Source of the DNA: a virus
Taxonomy: Duplodnaviria > Caudoviricetes
Direction: 5' to 3' (one strand)
IMG/VR virus record: IMGVR_UViG_3300020045_016833
Span: 1 to 51,308 of that record
DNA: 51,308 bases
Shown here piece after piece: positions 12,722-44,387 of this stretch; position 1 is the first letter of the stretch, and each line of letters opens with the position of its first letter. Below the pieces are notes generated by a model. That model saw only the letters and a program-made list of their open reading frames with translations, had not been told where the DNA came from and searched no databases. Position numbers and translations under genes: made by a program.

Positions 12722-13498
12722 ATGAATGGATACGATTTAACAAGAGCGTGGTATAATTACAAATTTCAAAATCCTAAAAAGGTAAAAGCGGCACATTCAG
12801 ACATGTTTTTTTATATCGTGGACCTGTGGAATCGATTAGGTCAAAAAAAAGAATTTGGATTACCAACAACGGTTACAATGGAAGCTTTAGGGGTAGGTTC
12901 GTACAACACTTATAAAAAAACGCTGGATGATTTGTTTGAAATTGGTTTTATAAAATTGGTTTCAGATAGTAAAAATCAACATCAAAGTAAAATAATTGCT
13001 TTGTCAAAAATTGACAAAGCAACTGACGAAGCACTTGACAAAGCAACTATAAAAGCAACTGACGAAGCACTTGACAAAGCAACTGATACCATAGTTAAAC
13101 AACTAAACAATACAACAACTAAACAATTAAACAATAATACTCTTTTAGAAAAAGAGACAAAAGAACATTTTTCTTTTAGAAAGGTATTGATTCAAAATGG
13201 CGGTTTAGAAACTTTAGTTGACGATTGGTTAAAAGTTAGAAAAACAAAAAAAGCAACTAATAGCGGAACTGCTTTGTCAGGATTTTTGAAACAAGTTGAA
13301 ATATCAAAATTATCCATTGATGAGGTTTTAATAATCTGCATCGAAAAAGATTGGAAAGGCTTTAATGCTTCCTGGATAAAAAATTTACAAAATCAAAATT
13401 CGCAAAATGGAAAACAACAATTTACAAACCCAGTCAAAACAGCCTACGAGTTTAGCGTTGATCGGGTTATCGAGACCCACGCTAGCAATTCTGAATGA
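12722..13498 (+). CDS. Phage replication initiator
   Basis: wHTH-like N-terminus, internal iterons (DKAT/DEAL repeats), C-terminal DWLKVRK..WKGFNASW. Confidence 0.75.
   Translation: MNGYDLTRAWYNYKFQNPKKVKAAHSDMFFYIVDLWNRLGQKKEFGLPTTVTMEALGVGSYNTYKKTLDDLFEIGFIKLVSDSKNQHQSKIIALSKIDKATDEALDKATIKATDEALDKATDTIVKQLNNTTTKQLNNNTLLEKETKEHFSFRKVLIQNGGLETLVDDWLKVRKTKKATNSGTALSGFLKQVEISKLSIDEVLIICIEKDWKGFNASWIKNLQNQNSQNGKQQFTNPVKTAYEFSVDRVIETHASNSE
13011..13140. repeat. Iteron array and AT-rich tract, probable replication origin
   Basis: 33-bp AAAGCAACTGACGAAGCACTTGACAAAGCAACT at 13016-13048 and 13052-13084 (12-bp periodicity), then TAAACAA repeats. Confidence 0.75.
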
Positions 13499-20344: not shown

Positions 20345-20388
20345 ATGTAGTATAATATGCTACTAACACATAATATTTTTTACATTTG
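20345..20388 (+). promoter_or_regulatory. Palindromic operator (ATGTAGTATAATATGCTAC) plus -7 box TACATTTG
   Basis: 17/19 match to 22895-22913; TAnnTTTG at 20381-20388. Confidence 0.55.
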
Positions 20389-22419: not shown

Positions 22420-22872
22420 ATGGCCGGTATCAGATCTACTAAATTAGAAACCGAAAAACGAGTATTCACCATCCAAGGGTGGGTAATTAATGGCGTACAA
22501 GATTATTTGATTTTAAAGAATATTGAGCAAGAATGGGGCGTTTCTCGAAGACAATCTAAAAATCTACTTCAAAAGGCTTATAAGATTTGGCACGAGGACC
22601 AAGAAGCAACTGTTGAACAAAAGCGAGCACTTAGAATAGCTGAACTAAAACAGAACATTCGCTCTATGAAAGATCAGTATAAAGGTACACCTCAGGGTAT
22701 GACCGCAGTCAATCAAATTCAAAAAGAAATAAATAAGCTTGAAGGTATTTATCCAGTTCGAAAAGTTATGATACAAGGAGATAAAGATAACCCAATTTCA
22801 TTTGTAGATAATTCAGATCCAATTTCCCGTGAAAAAAGAATTGCAGAATTAATAGCAAAGGCCCAAAAATAG
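22420..22872 (+). CDS. terS: Probable terminase small subunit
   Basis: HTH (EQEWGVSRRQ), INKLEGIY..QGDKDNPI tail typical of terS. Confidence 0.65.
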   Translation: MAGIRSTKLETEKRVFTIQGWVINGVQDYLILKNIEQEWGVSRRQSKNLLQKAYKIWHEDQEATVEQKRALRIAELKQNIRSMKDQYKGTPQGMTAVNQIQKEINKLEGIYPVRKVMIQGDKDNPISFVDNSDPISREKRIAELIAKAQK

Positions 22873-22893
22873 AAAACTGTTTTTTTTATTTAG

Positions 22894-22930
22894 AATGTAG
22901 CATATTATGCTACATTTTTTATTATATTTG
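22894..22930 (+). promoter_or_regulatory. Perfect 23-bp palindrome plus -7 box of a near-leaderless gene
   Basis: AATGTAGCATA-T-TATGCTACATT at 22894-22916; TATATTTG at 22923-22930; ATG at 22936. Confidence 0.6.
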
Positions 22931-22935
22931 AAATC

Positions 22936-23310
22936 ATGAAATTAAAATCACTGCTCTCAATTATGCTAATCGGGATGATTAGTCTAACAGCATTTGCAAC
23001 TACAAGCAAACTGGAGCAAAAACAAAAAACAGAATTCAAAATGGAACCCTCGTTTCAAATTGAAGCTGTAAACGTAGCAAATGATTTTCAGGTTGTTTTT
23101 GTATTGACAAATTCAGCAATTTTAAAAAACAGTGAAGTGGAAGTCTTTACAATTTTTATCAATCCTGTAGCCATTTTAAATGACGTTGGATGGAAAAGAA
23201 AAAAGCAATCTTATCAATCTATATCATACCAAGATAAGTTGCTGGAGAATTATACTTTAAACTTCAAAAACCATTTTAATTCAGTCCCCAATATGCGGAG
23301 CAACTGTTAA
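22936..23310 (+). CDS. Signal-peptide-bearing hypothetical protein
   Basis: MKLKSLLSIMLIGMISLTAFA. Confidence 0.6.
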   Translation: MKLKSLLSIMLIGMISLTAFATTSKLEQKQKTEFKMEPSFQIEAVNVANDFQVVFVLTNSAILKNSEVEVFTIFINPVAILNDVGWKRKKQSYQSISYQDKLLENYTLNFKNHFNSVPNMRSNC

Positions 23311-23331
23311 AAAGGTTCGATTCAATATATC

Positions 23332-23360
23332 AAAATCCATTCATTAAATGAATGGATTTT
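23332..23360 (+). terminator. 13-bp hairpin immediately before the tRNA-like element
   Basis: AAAATCCATTCAT-TAA-ATGAATGGATTTT. Confidence 0.55.
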
Positions 23361-23365
23361 TAAAT

Positions 23366-23499
23366 GGGGAAGTAGCTCAGGCGAAAGCAAAGGTTAGAGC
23401 ACTAATATTAGGTCGGTAACGGTAGTCTTGAAAAGCCTAGAAAAGTAGAGACAGTGTAAAGCCTTGAAGAGGTCAGCGGTTCGATTCCGTTCTTCTCCA
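23366..23499 (+). ncRNA. tRNA-like RNA with expanded D loop and a 68-nt insert replacing the anticodon arm
   Basis: Acceptor GGGGAAG/CTTCTCC, TA, D stem GCTC/GAGC, variable AGGTC, T arm AGCGG-TTCGATT-CCGTT; no canonical anticodon arm. Confidence 0.75.
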
Positions 23500-23565
23500 C
23501 AACAACCACGAAGATCGAAAACATAGCTGAAGGAGTTTCAATAGGACGTTATTTTAAAGTTCAGC

Positions 23566-23780
23566 AAAAAAAGTCATTCACCCCGATAAGTCGGGACATG
23601 AAACCATTCGGGTTGGAAAGGCTCGTCAAATCATTACATGATACGTGAATTAATGGGATTTTGTCGAGTACATAATCAATAGAACGTAGAAAATCTGAAT
23701 CGTATAGCGTTGAGTTAAGTAGGTGTTTACAATTTCATGAGCTTATCTCTATAAAAAATCAGATGTGAATGACTTTTTTT
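23566..23780 (+). ncRNA. Candidate structured ncRNA closed by a 16-bp stem
   Basis: AAAAAAAGTCATTCAC / GTGAATGACTTTTTTT, several internal stems, no ORF in the track. Confidence 0.55.
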
Positions 23781-23852
23781 TAATTTTTAAAAAACCAGTA
23801 AAATCAATACCTCAGTCAACTTACTACACAGGCCAGAGACAAAAAAATAAAC

Positions 23853-24077
23853 ATGAATATAAAAGAAGAAATTCAATCTACTCCAACTTTCAAAAAGCTA
23901 ATTAAAAGCACACCTTTTTTACAAAAGACTCTTTTGAAATGTACGACAACCGAAAGCATCGAGAGAATTATTTATCAGATACAAAAATTTGGGGAAGATT
24001 ATGTTGCTGACAAAAATTACATGGATCGCGAAGTTCAAATAGCCAAAGAAATAATTGAAAATTTAAATAATAATTAA
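23853..24077 (+). CDS. Hypothetical protein
   Basis: ORF. Confidence 0.6.
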   Translation: MNIKEEIQSTPTFKKLIKSTPFLQKTLLKCTTTESIERIIYQIQKFGEDYVADKNYMDREVQIAKEIIENLNNN

Positions 24078-24079
24078 GA

Positions 24080-24418
24080 ATGAAAATAGAAATCGAAAAA
24101 GGGCGTGTTTTTGTCGACGGTAAAGAAACAGTAGATCCGGTTCTTATTGGTTATGCGGTTTTAGATTATGCCGAAAATTGCAATGTGGATTTATCTACAT
24201 TAAAACAGAAATACCATAATTACATCAAGGACCGAAATCATAGAAAGACTTTCGAGCGTGAAACTCTTATTGATTTGATTGTTTTAAAAAAACTTATTAC
24301 ACCTCAGGAATTAGCAATTGAGGCCAAAAAAATAAATATCTCTCAAGCTACCTGTTATAATGTTTTCTCTTTTCTAAAGGAGGCAGGAATCGCAGACTTT
24401 TCTAACAAATGGAATTAA
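24080..24418 (+). CDS. Truncated Fur-like winged-helix protein with extra N-terminal domain
   Basis: HRKTFERETLIDLI and ISQATCYNVFSFLKEAGI parallel the Fur RKTxER and SRATxYN..L.E.G motifs; ends before the dimerisation domain. Confidence 0.65.
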   Translation: MKIEIEKGRVFVDGKETVDPVLIGYAVLDYAENCNVDLSTLKQKYHNYIKDRNHRKTFERETLIDLIVLKKLITPQELAIEAKKINISQATCYNVFSFLKEAGIADFSNKWN

Positions 24419-24954
24419 AAAATATGAAACCAATAAATTTTAAGGAATCGACTATTGAATTAAAAAAGCCAAAATCAATGACAGATGAAGAATGTTCTAG
24501 TCTGTTTATTCATCAATCAGATACAGGAGAATGTATATCGTGCTGGACAGTTCCTTTTTGGAAACGACTGCAATTTCTATTTCATGGTAAAATATGGCTT
24601 GGAGTTGTTTCCGGTAAAACTCAACCTCCAATTTGGTTAGACTGTAAAAAAACAGTTTTTAAGCCTAAAGTAGATCAAAGACTATTATGGTTAGGTATCA
24701 TGAATCAATGGTTTATTCAATGGTTTTTTATCAGGATTTTTAGTAACCGGGAAGAAGGTTCTCATACGCATTATGGGATTTTATATTGGGTATGGCCGGT
24801 AACTGGATGGATTACAAATTATAAAATTATAGGCGAAAAAATTAAATACAAGCACTTCAAAAAACAAGAAAAATCCAAAGAATCCAAAAAACAAGAGTGT
24901 TATAAAGGACATGGGTTATGTGATTGTACTGGATTGTGTAGAGAAAATTGTTAA
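24409..24954 (+). CDS. Hypothetical phage protein
   Basis: KPKSMTDEECSSL..CISCW..GKIWLGV; Cys-rich tail. Confidence 0.6.
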   Translation: MELKNMKPINFKESTIELKKPKSMTDEECSSLFIHQSDTGECISCWTVPFWKRLQFLFHGKIWLGVVSGKTQPPIWLDCKKTVFKPKVDQRLLWLGIMNQWFIQWFFIRIFSNREEGSHTHYGILYWVWPVTGWITNYKIIGEKIKYKHFKKQEKSKESKKQECYKGHGLCDCTGLCRENC

Positions 24955-24970
24955 ACTTAAATAAAAATAA

Positions 24971-25510
24971 ATGAAAGGATTCTTAGACATTGAAACAGGC
25001 GGTTTCTCCATTACCAAAAATGGAATATGTGAAATTGCATTAATTGCGGTTAATCATCAAAATGAAATTTTTGCAACATTCCATACATTCATAAAACCTT
25101 ACACCAGAGAAGAAGGTTCTGAAGAGTTGGTATCATACAAAGATGATGCAATGGCAATCAATGGCCTTACTGTTGAAAAGCTAATCGAGGAAGGTACAGA
25201 TGTTGAAATAGCAGCTGAGCAATTATACAACTTCATTATACAACATGATATAATTGAAATCATAGGACATAATTCCAAAGTATTTGATGTTCCTAGAATA
25301 AAATATTTACTTCAAAGATTCATGTCAGTGGATTTGACTCCATTAATAAATGAAGATGATACTATGCTCATCGCCAAACAAAAACTAAACCTGCCATCGT
25401 ATAAATTGGAGGTATTATGTGCTCATTTTGGCATTATAAATACAGACTCTCATACTGCCAAAGGCGATGCAAAAGCAACGTTTGAATTATACAAAAAATT
25501 AATCTTGTAA
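24971..25510 (+). CDS. DEDDh 3'-5' exonuclease (DnaQ-like)
   Basis: LDIETGG, GHNSKVFD, HTAKGDA. Confidence 0.9.
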   Translation: MKGFLDIETGGFSITKNGICEIALIAVNHQNEIFATFHTFIKPYTREEGSEELVSYKDDAMAINGLTVEKLIEEGTDVEIAAEQLYNFIIQHDIIEIIGHNSKVFDVPRIKYLLQRFMSVDLTPLINEDDTMLIAKQKLNLPSYKLEVLCAHFGIINTDSHTAKGDAKATFELYKKLIL

Positions 25511-25512
25511 GG

Positions 25513-25827
25513 ATGAAAGGTAAATATTTAATCACTACGGATAATTGGTTTTATGCTCCAGACGGAAAACAATATCGTGGAGTTTGGGGTAATGTAGAAA
25601 TAGTAGGCGATGCTATCTTAGGAATTAAAACAAACGTCAGAAGTTCGAATTGGTTTGCAAAGGTAGGAAGTGAAGATAATCACGTAATAATTGCTGGATG
25701 CCAAATACATTATGCTGTAAAATGTGAAAATGAACCAAATAATGAACCGGTAGAGGATTATAATATTGAGGGAGGTAAGATTTCAAAATTTACACGCCCT
25801 ACAATGTCTTACTATATTGTTAAATAA
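25513..25827 (+). CDS. Hypothetical phage protein
   Basis: ITTDNWFYAPDGKQY..IAGCQIHYA. Confidence 0.7.
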   Translation: MKGKYLITTDNWFYAPDGKQYRGVWGNVEIVGDAILGIKTNVRSSNWFAKVGSEDNHVIIAGCQIHYAVKCENEPNNEPVEDYNIEGGKISKFTRPTMSYYIVK

Positions 25828-25832
25828 TATAA

Positions 25833-27353
25833 ATGGCAAAACTTACAGATGATGAAATAAATGAACTAGATCTACTTTTAACTCAACGACGAGCCGATGA
25901 GTTAAAAGCTAGTTTATTCGAATTTGTAAAAGAGTTTTGGGATGTAATTATTACAGATGAATATGTTCATAACTGGCATATTGAATTTATGTGTGATGAA
26001 ATTCAGTTAGTCGTTGATAAATATGTTCTGGAAAGATCGCCGCATATTTCAAATGACAAATGGTACGAAGGAATAACCAGTAATATTCAAAAAAACTTAT
26101 TATTTAATATTCCTCCAGGAACTTCCAAATCTACAATTACATCTAGGATTTTGCCTGCTTGGATTTGGGCGGTTGACGATTCCAAAACCGTAATGACCAA
26201 CACGGTTTCACAAACCAACGCAAATGAATTTTCCTCAAAATCTAGAGATATTATTCAAAACGAAAAGTATAAAAATTATTTTCCTCATGTAAATATTAGG
26301 TATGATGTAAGTGCTAAAACGTTCTACCAAACCAAAAAAGGAGGAGTTAGGTTTTCATTTTCAACCAATGGATCAGTTACAGGGAAGCACGCCAGTATTT
26401 TAATTGATGATGATAGAATGGATGTGAAAATAGCAGATAGTCCAGCCGAAAGATTAAGAGCTATAAATCAATTCAAGGCATTTCAGACAAGAAAAAAGGA
26501 CAAGGCAAAAACCCCCTATATTTTGATGGAGCAGCGGCTTTCTAATAAAGATACAACTGCACACTGTTTGAATGTATTCAAGGATGAATGCAGACATATT
26601 TGCTTACCAGCAGAAAATGTCTATAAAAACATTGAGCCAAAAGAAATTGAAAAATTTTACATTGATGGTTTGCTGGATCCGGTTAGACTAAACAGAGATA
26701 TTCTTAAATCAACCCGTATGGGATTGAGTGATGAATCGAAGCCAATATCTGAAATCGCCTATAACATCCAATTCAATCAAGTATCTGAAACAGTTGAAGG
26801 ATTACTTTATGGAAAGTTAAATTTTGTAAAATCATTACCAGAAAGTAGAGATGGTTCAATTCGATATTCCTTCACTGATGTTGCTGACACTGGAAGTGAT
26901 TATTTTGCTACTCCATTTATGGAAATCAATAAGAATAAAATATACGTTTTTGATGCGATTTACACACAAGAACCAAGCGGCATCACTTCTCAAAAAATGA
27001 AATCAAAGATTGAACAGCATGGTAGTGTAGTGAATAAAATTGAAACCAATAATCAAGGAAGCGTGTTTGTTACATTACTTCAAATGATGGGTGTAAATGT
27101 TTCAGGCTATTATTCCTCTGGAAATAAAGAAGAGCGCATAAGCGCATGGGCGCAATTCATATCATTCATCTATTTTGTAGAACCGGACGAAAACAGCTCA
27201 ACGGAATACCGCCAATTTATCAAGCATTTACAGTCATACCCAAAAATAGGAAAACATGATGATGGCCACGATGATGCTGAAGATGCAATTACCGAAATGC
27301 TAAGGTATATCTGGACCAATTTAAGACACTTATTTATGAATCAAAATCAATAA
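25833..27353 (+). CDS. terL: Terminase large subunit
   Basis: NWHI, NIPPGTSKS (Walker A), ILIDDD (Walker B), MEQRL, DVAD..HDDAED nuclease motifs. Confidence 0.9.
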   Translation: MAKLTDDEINELDLLLTQRRADELKASLFEFVKEFWDVIITDEYVHNWHIEFMCDEIQLVVDKYVLERSPHISNDKWYEGITSNIQKNLLFNIPPGTSKSTITSRILPAWIWAVDDSKTVMTNTVSQTNANEFSSKSRDIIQNEKYKNYFPHVNIRYDVSAKTFYQTKKGGVRFSFSTNGSVTGKHASILIDDDRMDVKIADSPAERLRAINQFKAFQTRKKDKAKTPYILMEQRLSNKDTTAHCLNVFKDECRHICLPAENVYKNIEPKEIEKFYIDGLLDPVRLNRDILKSTRMGLSDESKPISEIAYNIQFNQVSETVEGLLYGKLNFVKSLPESRDGSIRYSFTDVADTGSDYFATPFMEINKNKIYVFDAIYTQEPSGITSQKMKSKIEQHGSVVNKIETNNQGSVFVTLLQMMGVNVSGYYSSGNKEERISAWAQFISFIYFVEPDENSSTEYRQFIKHLQSYPKIGKHDDGHDDAEDAITEMLRYIWTNLRHLFMNQNQ

Positions 27354-27381
27354 ATGATTATCCATATAAAAACTAAAAAAG

Positions 27382-27645
27382 ATGAAAAAAGTAATAATTA
27401 TTGGTTCTGGACTATATCCTATTCATTTAAAACACTGTATCGATATTATAATCAATGATGAAAAAAATAATAAGGAGAAAACATTAAAAATGTCTTTTGA
27501 GTATTTAGCTTCTAATGCAGAAAGTACCAAAGAGGCGATTAATAAGTTTGTTGAATCCATGAAACAAGCAAATTTTAAGAAATCATTCGAACCAGAGCCA
27601 AGTAAGTTCATCAGTAAACCTAAAAACAATTTTAAAAAACGATAA
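27382..27645 (+). CDS. Hypothetical protein
   Basis: ORF. Confidence 0.55.
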   Translation: MKKVIIIGSGLYPIHLKHCIDIIINDEKNNKEKTLKMSFEYLASNAESTKEAINKFVESMKQANFKKSFEPEPSKFISKPKNNFKKR

Positions 27646-27646
27646 A

Positions 27647-27784
27647 ATGACAGCAGAGGAAAAAGAAAAAATTGATTATAAAATTCAAGCAAAAATAAAG
27701 GCCAGGAATAAAGATATAGGAGATTGGGGATGTGCTGGATTATTAGCCATACTATTTTTTTTGTTTTTACTAATTATCGGATAA
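27647..27784 (+). CDS. 45-aa membrane peptide (MTAEEKEKIDYK...WGCAGLLAILFFLFLLIIG)
   Basis: Hand translation. Confidence 0.5.
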   Translation: MTAEEKEKIDYKIQAKIKARNKDIGDWGCAGLLAILFFLFLLIIG

Positions 27785-27814
27785 ACTTCAATCAATTAAA
27801 ATAAAAAAGCGGAA

Positions 27815-27836
27815 CCTGAAAAGCTAATGAGTAGGG
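27815..27836 (+). promoter_or_regulatory. GAA/AGUA hairpin RNA motif (second copy)
   Basis: CCT-GAA-AAGC-TAATG-AGTA-GGG, same pattern as 23425-23452. Confidence 0.45.
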
Positions 27837-27858
27837 AAAATAAATAATAATAAATATT

Positions 27859-28083
27859 ATGCCACAAGTAAGAGCAAAATTTGTTTGTGAATCTGTCACA
27901 AACTAGGAACACAGTAAAACTGCAAAATTAAGAGCGGTGTATGGAACTGCGGAAGAAAACGCAGATTTCACAAAATATACTCCAAATGGAAGCATTGAAG
28001 TATCAATTACTAATGATGCTCCGGCCGATGGAGTGTTTGTTCCTGGTAAAAGCTATTTTGTAGATTTTACAGAAGTAGAGTAA
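27859..28083 (+). pseudogene. 74-codon phage gene interrupted by an in-frame TAG at 27904-27906
   Basis: MPQVRAKFVCESVTN*EHSKTAKLRAVYGTAEENADFTKYTPNGSIEVSITNDAPADGVFVPGKSYFVDFTEVE. Confidence 0.75.
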
Positions 28084-28100
28084 TTAATCTCAATTATTGC

Positions 28101-28132
28101 AAAAAACCACATTAGAAATAGTGTGGTTTTTT
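28101..28132 (+). terminator. Intrinsic terminator before the portal operon
   Basis: AAAAAACCACA...TGTGGTTTTTT. Confidence 0.65.
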
Positions 28133-28146
28133 TATGTAATCGCTTC

Positions 28147-28189
28147 TTATTTTTATTTAGACTAAATAAAAATAATTTCATTACATTTG
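28147..28189 (+). promoter_or_regulatory. 29-bp palindrome (Fur-box-like) plus -7 box of the structural operon
   Basis: TTATTTTTATTTAG-A-CTAAATAAAAATAA at 28147-28175; TACATTTG at 28182-28189. Confidence 0.65.
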
Positions 28190-28207: not shown

Positions 28208-29401
28208 ATGGGCTTCTGGGAATCTTTAAGGACATTTAGATATGGGATAGAAACTAAAAATGATTCTGTCAACGGCCAGCCTGTACAGATGGAAATTGAT
28301 GTTTTTGGCATCGGAAGTAATGACAAAAAAACATTCTACTCCGATTCTACAAAATTCGTAAAGCTTCAAAAAGAAACATTTGTCCTAAACAATGTGTTCA
28401 ATAAAATTGCCAGTAAACTATCCAGTGCGCAATTTATAAGCGAGTCAGATAATAGTGAAATATTAGATAAAATCAATAATCCCAATGATTCGCAGTCTAA
28501 AGAAGAATTTTTAAAAGAGTTCGCTGTCTTTTTATTGTCTTCAGGTTGGACAGCTATCTGGAAAAAATATAAATCATTTGGGAATTTCAAAACTTTAGAG
28601 CTGATCAATTTAAATCCGGATAATACCGATATAGGTAAAATCAATCTAACAACTGAAATAGATGGAAAGTCAGAAACGATATTGTTGACCGATGTCATTT
28701 TATTTTATGACAGTGTTCGAAACAACAAAAATAAAAAGGGCTATTCAAGAATTACGCCTTTAAGAACGCAGATAAATAACATTAAAGATGCGCAATTAGC
28801 TAAAGGTATTCAAATTGAGAATTCAGGAACTACCATAGTTTCACCAAAACAAACAGCTGCCGGAAATAATATAGATGAAGGTTTAAATGCACCGGTTCCA
28901 GTTATGGGAGGTGGTTTAAAAACTCAAAGAGAGGAAATGGAAGATCGATTTAGCAGTCGAGGCCTAATAAATAGAATCATTGTTTCATCAAAGGGATTGG
29001 ATGCCAAAAACCTTTCTGCTGAATTAAATACAGTTAAGTTTCATGAGATAGTTGAAACTGATATTCTCGCAGTTTATGATGCTTATAACTTCCCAGTTGA
29101 ATTAAGTCCATACGGTAAGAATGCGACTTTTGAGAATAAAGAAGTTGCTGAAGTTGGCTTAATAGAAAATGAAGTATCTCCATTAGCTGAAAATCTAGTC
29201 AATTCACTTAATGCCGAATTTCCGAACAAGAAACCAATCGATGTTGATTTTAATCATTTGAATTCAATGTCAGTAATTCAAGAAAGAATTCAAAAAACAA
29301 ACGGAACCACGATTGATCAATATGGAACTTTATTTGACAAAAAAATTATAACTGAATCAGAGTACAAAGAAATATTAAAATCTAAAAAAATATTACTATG
29401 A
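28208..29401 (+). CDS. Portal protein
   Basis: Position after terL; INNPNDSQSKEEF, KGYSRI, ATFENKEVAE, ENEVSPLA patterns of HK97-like portals. Confidence 0.8.
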   Translation: MGFWESLRTFRYGIETKNDSVNGQPVQMEIDVFGIGSNDKKTFYSDSTKFVKLQKETFVLNNVFNKIASKLSSAQFISESDNSEILDKINNPNDSQSKEEFLKEFAVFLLSSGWTAIWKKYKSFGNFKTLELINLNPDNTDIGKINLTTEIDGKSETILLTDVILFYDSVRNNKNKKGYSRITPLRTQINNIKDAQLAKGIQIENSGTTIVSPKQTAAGNNIDEGLNAPVPVMGGGLKTQREEMEDRFSSRGLINRIIVSSKGLDAKNLSAELNTVKFHEIVETDILAVYDAYNFPVELSPYGKNATFENKEVAEVGLIENEVSPLAENLVNSLNAEFPNKKPIDVDFNHLNSMSVIQERIQKTNGTTIDQYGTLFDKKIITESEYKEILKSKKILL

Positions 29402-43899: not shown

Positions 43900-44063
43900 T
43901 TATCTGTTATTTCTTTGTATTTCCCAATATGTTTAGGATACTTATTTGATTGATTAAGCTCTTTCAATTTATCAGCTAATAAAATGACTTCTTCTATATC
44001 TCCAAGTTCGCAAGCTTTACGAATATCATCTAATAAAAAATCTATTGCATTATTTTCCATCAA
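43872..44063 (-). CDS. Small hypothetical protein (moron)
   Basis: Coupled to 44060-44272. Confidence 0.55.
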   Translation of the reverse strand: MMENNAIDFLLDDIRKACELGDIEEVILLADKLKELNQSNKYPKHIGKYKEITDKIKNATKLN

Positions 44064-44272
44064 TTCTTATCTTTTAGTTCAAAGATCTTCTTCTTCGTAA
44101 CATCATCAATAATCGAAATATTACGGTGGTTATGATGGTGGTGGTGGTGGTGCACGGAACGATCAATAAATGTTGGTCCCTTATCTTTTTTGCCAAACAA
44201 AGCTTCGCCTATGACTTTGAACACAAGCCAGCAACCACCTACGCAAATAATAAATAAAAATAATATTCCCAT
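44060..44272 (-). CDS. Small membrane protein with poly-His tract (moron)
   Basis: N-terminal TM helix, HHHHHHHNH; TAATTTTG -7 box on the minus strand at 44277-44284. Confidence 0.65.
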   Translation of the reverse strand: MGILFLFIICVGGCWLVFKVIGEALFGKKDKGPTFIDRSVHHHHHHHNHRNISIIDDVTKKKIFELKDKN

Positions 44273-44339: not shown

Positions 44340-44387
44340 TATTTTTATTTAGACTAAATTAAAATAAGATAAAATTGTTTACATTTG
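44340..44387 (+). promoter_or_regulatory. Second Fur-box-like element plus -7 box for the tail-fibre/lysis unit
   Basis: 44340-44367 is 27/28 identical to 28148-28175; TACATTTG at 44380-44387. Confidence 0.65.

Follow-up and report, generated by a model that had tools for sequence, protein, structure and literature searches.

A phage protein with a Fur-type DNA-binding domain and a conserved phage module, and Fur-type boxes at phage late promoters

We describe a phage gene in which a Fur-type DNA-binding domain without its metal-sensing half is joined to a conserved phage module. The window, i.e., the whole stretch of DNA analysed, spans 51,308 nt; it represents a complete virus record and is bounded by direct terminal repeats of 121 nt. 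It carries at 24080..24418 (+ strand, ATG start) the gene for a 112-aa two-module protein, and two Fur-type boxes (28147-28175 and 44340-44367) overlap the −33 region of both late promoters, which is new here. On the sequence evidence, we see an even chance that the protein would be a metal-independent Fur-box binder that takes the place of host Fur, or competes with it, at the phage late promoters and perhaps at promoters of the host as well.

The phage of the window is temperate and siphovirus-like. Its integrase (1-798) and cI-like repressor (1799-2506) are encoded on the minus strand, and the genes for RecT, an exonuclease, a ParB-like protein, a helicase and replication come next in gene order. 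A methyltransferase gene (20423) is followed by a block of small genes, and further along lie the large terminase (25833), the portal (28187, TTG start as listed), the tape measure (35375) with two virion proteins behind it, a fibre-like ORF of 1312 aa (44375, TTG start as listed) and the endolysin (48910). The two-module gene belongs to the pre-late lytic operon, away from the immunity region; three other genes lie between it and the terminase gene, and its 3′ end shares 10 nt with the next ORF, which starts at 24409. The ORF of the initial annotation is real, and its 112-residue sequence was found exactly as quoted there. Homologues of the full 112 aa numbered 12, with 76-97% identity to the window protein, and the close homologues came from Flavobacterium genomes and from freshwater-type viral contigs. 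When the window gene was searched against a phage collection, no DNA match and a sole protein match of 30 residues (E 0.2) were obtained.

Several further features were noted in the window. At 23366-23499 (+), a 134-nt Rfam tRNA match covers the full model (1-71) with 33.2 bits against a gathering score of 29; its D-loop has 16 nt (5 in the model) and its anticodon region 64 nt (13 in the model). ARAGORN did not find a tRNA at this place, and the anticodon could not be read confidently. A DUF805b RNA motif (36.7 bits) at 27806-27837 (+) lies directly 5′ of a small ORF at 27870-28083 (+), in which an in-frame TAG was seen by eye about 15 codons in, the frame running on to a TAA at about 28081. 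Inside a replication-initiator-like gene, the region 12996-13084 contains four direct repeats at a spacing of 12 nt together with a perfect inverted repeat of 12 nt, and it may be an origin with iterons. The ORF 22420-22872 was considered as the small terminase subunit, and no support for this assignment was obtained.

The Fur-type winged-helix DNA-binding domain, with a shortened wing, was placed at residues 41-112 (24200..24415, + strand), and its similarity to Fur is firm at the level of the protein family only, not for the window protein alone. When the window protein was searched by itself, Pfam FUR (PF01475) matched residues 53-109 at profile positions 3-63 of 121 with an E-value of 0.0017 and a score of 19 bits, which is below the gathering score of 23.1, and the Fur matches obtained with phmmer against the PDB were not significant. 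As the host reference we used the 169-aa Fur encoded at L035:1417-1926 by Flavobacterium sp. UMI-01, whose genome also contains a prophage relative; pairwise BLASTP of the window protein against it gave an E-value of 0.34. A scan of 1.84 billion representatives returned 69 proteins at E ≤ 0.001, about 32 of which (manual count of the table) match through their C-terminal part. A family alignment of 38 two-module relatives of the window protein gave a much clearer picture: 25 of the 38 match PF01475 at E ≤ 0.01 (best 1.1e-11), the top 18 PDB sequences matched by the family profile all belong to the Fur family (best PerR 4i7h, 1.8e-8), and hhalign of the profile with the Flavobacterium host Fur gave a probability of 99.1% and an E-value of 1.4e-18 over 89 columns.

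Among individual relatives, P0064 was 43% identical to host Fur over 94 residues, from helix 1 through the wing (E 3e-26), and this identity includes the recognition helix. Over the domain, identity to host Fur was 37/78 for P0064, 30/77 for P0069 and 18/74 for the window protein, whose recognition helix departs from that of host Fur at several positions. Residues T57, E59, R60 and Y93 are nearly invariant across the family, and R55, K56, T91 and N94, at the RKT..ER and T.YN positions of Fur, are also kept in the window protein. The AF2 model of the 112-aa protein (pLDDT 86.1) contained helices at 41-52, 58-70, 75-83 and 89-101, and in the Foldseek ranking for this model, the places to about rank 34 were taken by chains of Fur, PerR, Zur, Mur and Nur, whose probabilities reached 0.97; the E-values of these Fur-family matches were all at least 0.16, because only a small domain aligns. 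The prediction of a homodimer scored 0.06, which gives no verdict either way. Subfamilies that have diverged to as little as about 30% identity still show the two-module form. P0017, a protein of 5973 aa (E 2e-16), was rejected as a relative, its score being a repeat artefact of many weak ~30% matches to a repeated unit.

The initial annotation had recognised a Fur-type pattern in residues ~40-107 and had proposed to look for Fur or winged-helix similarity by profile search and monomer modelling. Such similarity was found by both routes, and the family profile, hhalign and AF2/Foldseek agree on residues ~41-112. At the level of sequence and predicted fold, these comparisons show that residues 41-112 have their origin in the DNA-binding domain of Fur from Bacteroidota. 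The window domain itself is a diverged branch, and its DNA specificity may have drifted.

The other half of Fur is missing. The window protein stops at residue 112, after helix 4 and the shortened wing, and together with the end of the Pfam match at position 63 of 121 this bears out the earlier claim that it terminates before the dimerisation domain. In the longest true relatives (146-151 aa), the wing hairpin is complete and the protein likewise ends after it, and a Fur C-domain was carried by no relative among the representatives scanned. In Fur and PerR, the DNA-binding domain gives a sensor His, located before helix 3, to the regulatory metal site. This His, likewise said earlier to be absent, is indeed replaced: the column of the host ‘EHF’ His is occupied by L72 in the window protein, and His was present there in none of the 18 phage sequences aligned with host Fur. 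The window protein contains two Cys residues (C34 and C92) and no CxxC motif. With no C-domain, no sensor His and no CxxC, the protein is by these family-defining features no Fur metalloregulator, and we read its sequence as that of a Fur DNA-binding domain in a new setting; the usual build of the Fur family, as given in a passage of a review, is one of two domains (PMC11353095). The next ORF (24409-24954) was considered as a split-off Fur C-domain and showed no Fur similarity; its homologue occurs independently in relatives without the Fur domain.

The N-terminal part had been described as an extension of about 35 aa. It is real and proved to be more than an extension, namely an independently conserved module (residues 1-35; 24080..24184, + strand) of three short strands and one helix, in which AF2 assigned E3-6, E9-12 and H20-33. 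Many proteins match it at 60-80% identity and have nothing else in common with the window protein. In a comparison set of 32 loci from viral contigs and Flavobacterium genomes, the N-module HMM detected one gene per locus in 32/32 loci, always in the interval from a conserved 150-aa ORF to the large terminase; the gene itself or an N-module homologue stands directly 5′ of the large terminase gene in L001, L026, L027 and L005. The Fur-part HMM matched in 6/32 loci only (L001, L002, L003, L004, L026 and L027), and the remaining 26 carry at least seven different C-termini behind the N-module, one type being minimal N-module proteins of 53-59 aa in which the hairpin is repeated internally. Mean pairwise identity of the N-module at the three codon positions was 0.83/0.90/0.52 (11 sequences, 96 nt), a pattern of conservation at the protein level and not of a DNA signal. 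On this sequence measure, residues 1-35 are shown to be a phage module under protein-level selection.

No match to the N-module at E ≤ 10 was found among PDB sequences, and Protein Atlas returned no usable match for residues 1-38. A fold search against 48,161 chains gave a best Z of 2.6, to an unrelated protein. The N-module was also compared with the AbrB/MazE-type swapped-hairpin domain, an intertwined dimer with two hairpins about a helix; the minimal 53-59-aa relatives have the hairpin repeat mentioned above, and the second hairpin was not built in the AF2 model (pLDDT 78.8). The borders of the two modules could be followed in the relatives: homology of L005 to the window gene ends right after residue ~32, P0014 has 32 of the first 33 residues of the window N-module in front of another C-terminus, and P0025 has the last 43 residues of the window protein behind a different N-terminus. 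By such alignments, the N-module gene is a recombination hot spot. In L020:8001-8402, the N-module is joined to the C-terminal half of the ORF that comes next in the window, and in L005:8001-8204, the N-module gene is shortened to 67 aa at the point from which another terminase module follows.

We then consider the DNA sites. The sequence 28147..28175 is a 29-bp perfect palindrome (14-1-14) and forms a Fur-type box with short spacing that covers the −33 region of the promoter for the portal, head and tail genes; a second copy, 96% identical, is located at 44340..44367, between a leftward ORF with a seven-His run and the fibre-like gene. Both are followed by TACATTTG (TAnnTTTG), which we take to be the −7-type promoter motif of the phylum, at 28182..28189 (+), 14 nt after the first box, and at 44380..44387 (+), 20 nt after the second. 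The −7/−33 promoter arrangement is mentioned in a part of PMC5609570. The listed TTG starts of the portal (28187) and fibre (44375) genes fall inside or before the −7 element; the likely starts are the in-frame ATG codons at 28208 and 44411, respectively. The leftward ORF (44060-44272, − strand) encodes 70 aa with a hydrophobic N-terminus and the run HHHHHHHNH, has no PHROG match, and is divergent from the 44340-44367 box, which separates it from the fibre gene.

According to PMC5609570, regulated promoters of Riemerella led to the prediction of a Fur box ATTTAGAATTATTCTAAAT, and four promoter fragments in which it occurs were shifted by purified Fur; the abstract of that paper and a passage of PMC7976709 quote the E. 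coli consensus instead of the Flavobacteriales box. We used ATTTAGAATnATTCTAAAT as the canonical Flavobacteriales Fur box and TTATTTAGAATnATTCTAAATAA as the extended box. The extended box reached its top score (18/22) at only 4 of ~102,600 window positions, all of them in the two palindromes and in registers offset by 6 bp, so that each palindrome reads as two overlapping Fur boxes. An overlapping-box arrangement was reportedly proposed by Baichoo and Helmann for classical Fur operators. The outer hexamers of the palindromes, ATTTAG/CTAAAT, are those of the Fur box, with 1 bp between them and 7 in the canonical box, and the strong half-sites of this short box lie 6 bp apart centre to centre. 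At up to 3 mismatches, neither the canonical Flavobacteriales box nor the E. coli Fur consensus was found in the window; only the extended-box score reveals the palindromes. Three sites had initially been named as phage Fur boxes. Two of them, 28147-28175 and 44340-44367, hold as top extended-box matches situated where relatives have the canonical box; the third, 22894-22916, belongs to another class of palindrome.

In order to judge the Fur-box motif, we counted it in three Flavobacterium genomes, where it occurred at up to 2 mismatches at 5, 12 and 9 sites (26 in all) against 0, 3 and 4 (7) for the reversed control. The genes beside these sites included three TonB-dependent receptors, hemA with an AraC-type gene (twice), a PLP decarboxylase, a class-V aminotransferase, a DUF4198 protein, an Fe-S nitrite reductase and cytochromes. 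The iron-gene neighbours and the excess over the control make the motif a credible Fur box in Flavobacterium. The best matches in the host genomes were located inside prophages. In the L040 prophage, the box lies between the portal/HNH genes and a scaffold-like gene, and two prophages have a canonical box that is flanked by a phrog_26672 virion gene and the fibre gene. The N-terminus of the fibre gene in those two matches window ORF 44375 (E 3e-6), and judged from this gene order the canonical box occupies the slot of the window's 44340-44367. A canonical box with one mismatch was also seen at L042:1501-1519, on a contig of Flavobacterium sp. UMI-01, some 20 kb upstream of the L026 gene; it lies in the immunity region, 8 nt 5′ of the start codon of a phrog_4 repressor gene, and this region and the L026 gene probably belong to the same prophage.

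In the 32 loci (432,646 nt), the exact canonical box was found 13 times in 13 loci and its reversed control not at all; with up to 1 mismatch, the counts were 16 versus 0, and the shuffle mean was 0.02. The short form occurred exactly 6 times against 0 in the control, and in 8 loci at up to 1 mismatch; the loci with neither form mostly end too early or hold a 2-mismatch version. In 26 aligned promoters of both forms, the proximal half-site ends 13-17 nt before TAnnTTTG for the canonical form and 14-15 nt before it for the short form, with 20 nt in two cases. Furthermore, the exact box followed by 12-18 nt and TAnnTTTG was present in 93 stretches of IMG/VR. The 79 loci that were read (L072-L150) gave 81 such promoters, 66 of them with an ORF of at least 60 aa within 200 nt, and these ORFs were 27 scaffold-like, 15 fibre-like, 2 portal and 22 unassigned; several contigs hold two or three copies of box plus TAnnTTTG. 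With such conservation, a Fur-type box covering the −33 region is a hallmark of the late promoters of this group of phages.

The boxes were not confined to phages with the Fur domain. Short boxes accompany a non-Fur C-terminus in L016, L023/L031 and L025, and canonical boxes do likewise in many loci. In the records behind L016, L023 and L025 (57%, 83% and 34% complete), an exhaustive HMM search with all filters off gave no Fur domain, the best E-value being 0.2; PF01475 as a probe had missed the positive control (the L003 record), and the family alignment and HMM were used instead. Both box forms occur together in one of these three records, the short one preceding the portal gene and the canonical one the fibre gene. 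The Fur-type loci comprise two with canonical boxes and four, the window included, with short ones, and their recognition helices do not sort likewise; no correlation of box form or middle palindrome with the Fur domain survived the relatedness of the loci. Since boxes are present without the Fur domain, the phage protein is not their obligatory ligand, and host Fur probably also uses the phage boxes. From their distribution, host Fur is presumably the default, common ligand of the phage late boxes.

The probable promoter of the operon with the two-module gene is located at 22886..22930 (+) and consists of a half Fur box, a palindrome and TATATTTG. The half box TTATTTAGAAT (22886-22896) is a perfect left half and abuts the middle-class palindrome (22894-22916), and the TATATTTG element occupies 22923-22930 on the + strand. 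From 22923 to 28182, no other TAnnTTTG was found on the + strand outside + strand genes, so the gene is probably transcribed from the 22923 promoter, before the two Fur-box promoters fire. The palindrome, which follows the 150-aa ORF, has a twin at 20347-20365, before the methyltransferase gene, and TAACAT..ATGTTA-type repeats stand at both promoters in relatives with or without the Fur domain (slots in L001, L002, L005, L018, L022 and L025), the exact sequence differing between phage lineages. The exact form GTAGYATAWTATGCTAC was confined to the window, L001 and L026, each of which carries a member of the 112-aa subfamily, and the same three have TTATTTAGAAT abutting the palindrome; this half box is absent in L005, a locus that lost the domain. 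We calculate that a genome as large as this one would contain the 11-mer, in exact form, about 0.3 times by chance alone. The distribution of the half box is suggestive of autoregulation by the phage protein; the window, L001 and L026 are close relatives, and for this reason the co-occurrence of half box and palindrome with the domain is not independent evidence. The stretch 22892-22918 also scores as a terminator-like hairpin.

The explanation that we favour treats the 112-aa protein as what would be a small phage DNA-binding regulator built from two modules. Its targets would be Fur-type boxes, in the first place 28147-28175 (portal/head/tail) and 44340-44367 (fibre/lysis), and its DNA binding would not be gateable by iron. 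The N-module may provide the oligomerisation or partner contact that otherwise comes from the Fur C-domain. As the operon from 22923 lies upstream of the late promoters, the protein would be made first and would then occupy the boxes whatever the iron status. The phage-borne domain would thereby be an optional, metal-independent substitute for, or competitor of, host Fur. Counting against this explanation are the boxes in relatives with a non-Fur C-terminus, the lack of agreement between box form and recognition helix, the divergence and sub-threshold Pfam score of the window domain, its shortened wing, and the spacing of only 6 bp between the strong half-sites of the short box. Because the box stands in place of the −33 element, an activator is as plausible as an occluding repressor; in the activation variant, the protein would be a box reader that recruits polymerase. 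The same specificity would let it sit on host Fur boxes, and an action on the host iron regulon is plausible.

The host could even be the main target. The protein would then be a constitutive Fur stand-in on host Fur boxes and, at any level of iron, would shut down TonB-dependent receptors and other iron genes; this could serve, for instance, to prevent superinfection or adsorption to lysing cells. The phage boxes would in that case have host Fur as their only ligand. The 43% identity of P0064 to the host Fur domain, recognition helix included, speaks for a host target, as do the host boxes before three TonB-dependent receptors and other iron genes, and the relatives that carry phage boxes without the protein. 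The recognition helix of the window protein is, however, unlike that of the host at several positions, the gene lies in the pre-late lytic operon and not near the immunity region, and the canonical half-site spacing would need a putative oligomerisation. We consider a primarily host-directed role unlikely; it is compatible with the favoured explanation. Divergence of the window domain may alternatively have carried it to a phage-specific operator, e.g., 20347-20365 and 22894-22916, the late boxes being left to host Fur or another phage factor. Such a drift would suit the restriction of GTAGYATAWTATGCTAC to the window, L001 and L026, and the half Fur box (22886-22896) that these three share and the domain-less L005 lacks. 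Yet equivalent repeats occur at the same promoters in L005, L018, L025 and L010, all without the Fur domain, the carriers are merely close relatives whose co-occurrence is not independent, and the palindrome region 22892-22918 doubles as a terminator-like hairpin, so that we rate a drifted operator as quite unlikely.

The position of the gene, or of its N-module homologue, directly before the large terminase in L001, L026, L027 and L005 might also suggest a packaging accessory, i.e., a DNA-recognition protein like the small terminase subunit and not a transcription factor. Most homologues in that slot, however, have no DNA-binding domain and some have only 53-59 aa, three genes lie between the window gene and the terminase, and there was no terminase-family match in Pfam or PHROGs; a packaging role is very improbable. 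A functionless by-product of recombination at a mosaic junction would account for the end of homology after residue ~32 in L005, for the near-identical N-module with another C-terminus in P0014, and for the last 43 residues behind another N-terminus in P0025. This is highly unlikely in view of the 12 homologues in which the full 112 aa are kept at 76-97% identity, the occurrence of the two-module form in diverged subfamilies down to ~30% identity, and the conserved Fur-like RKT..ER and T.YN positions.

Returning to the metal-independent Fur-box binder, Fur is the central iron switch of bacteria, and a natural phage Fur domain without the sensor would be a ready-made, metal-blind competitor of this switch and a clear case of a phage taking half a host regulator. 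The perfect host-type Fur boxes on many Flavobacterium phage late promoters may matter more than the protein. If host Fur binds the phage boxes, virion production would be coupled to iron supply, which, if true, bears on phage-host dynamics in iron-limited waters and on the phages of fish-pathogenic flavobacteria. A broader and, in our estimate, improbable reading is that a large group of Flavobacterium phages gates virion production on the host iron sensor. The N-module would then be a handle that docks on RNA polymerase or on box-bound Fur, with interchangeable C-termini, and the Fur fusion would be self-sufficient, carrying its own box reader and making late transcription independent of iron.

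In the literature outside subscription journals, no paper was found on a phage-borne Fur domain or on Fur boxes at phage late genes, and nothing relevant on Fur-like proteins of Flavobacterium phages. Among known systems, host Fur of Flavobacterium and the Flavobacteriales is the closest, with a homologous winged-helix domain and the same RKTxER and TxYN motifs. The phage protein differs from it in having no dimerisation/metal domain and no sensor His, in its unrelated N-module, in being phage-encoded, and, in the subfamily of the window, in its shortened wing. The best profile and fold matches over residues ~41-110 (PerR 4i7h and 2fe3, Fur 4ets, 6d57 and 2xig, Zur 4mtd) are solved Fur-family regulators; in contrast to the 112-aa phage protein, each of these has two domains, senses metal as a dimer and is 130-170 aa long. 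The matches also included 2fu4 (83 aa), the isolated DNA-binding domain of E. coli Fur, which likewise is a Fur domain without the C-terminal half; it is an engineered laboratory fragment, whereas the phage gene is natural and has an added N-module. A phage-borne gene under the control of host Fur is known in stx1, which has a prophage promoter. That case concerns a single cargo gene, whereas here the boxes are found at structural late promoters and the phage has a Fur-derived domain of its own. Finally, MotA of phage T4 is a two-module factor, one half of which binds DNA at a box that replaces the upstream promoter element while the other half contacts the host polymerase. The resemblance of the phage protein to MotA is one of functional analogy only, as the domain order and the origin of the DNA-binding domain differ.
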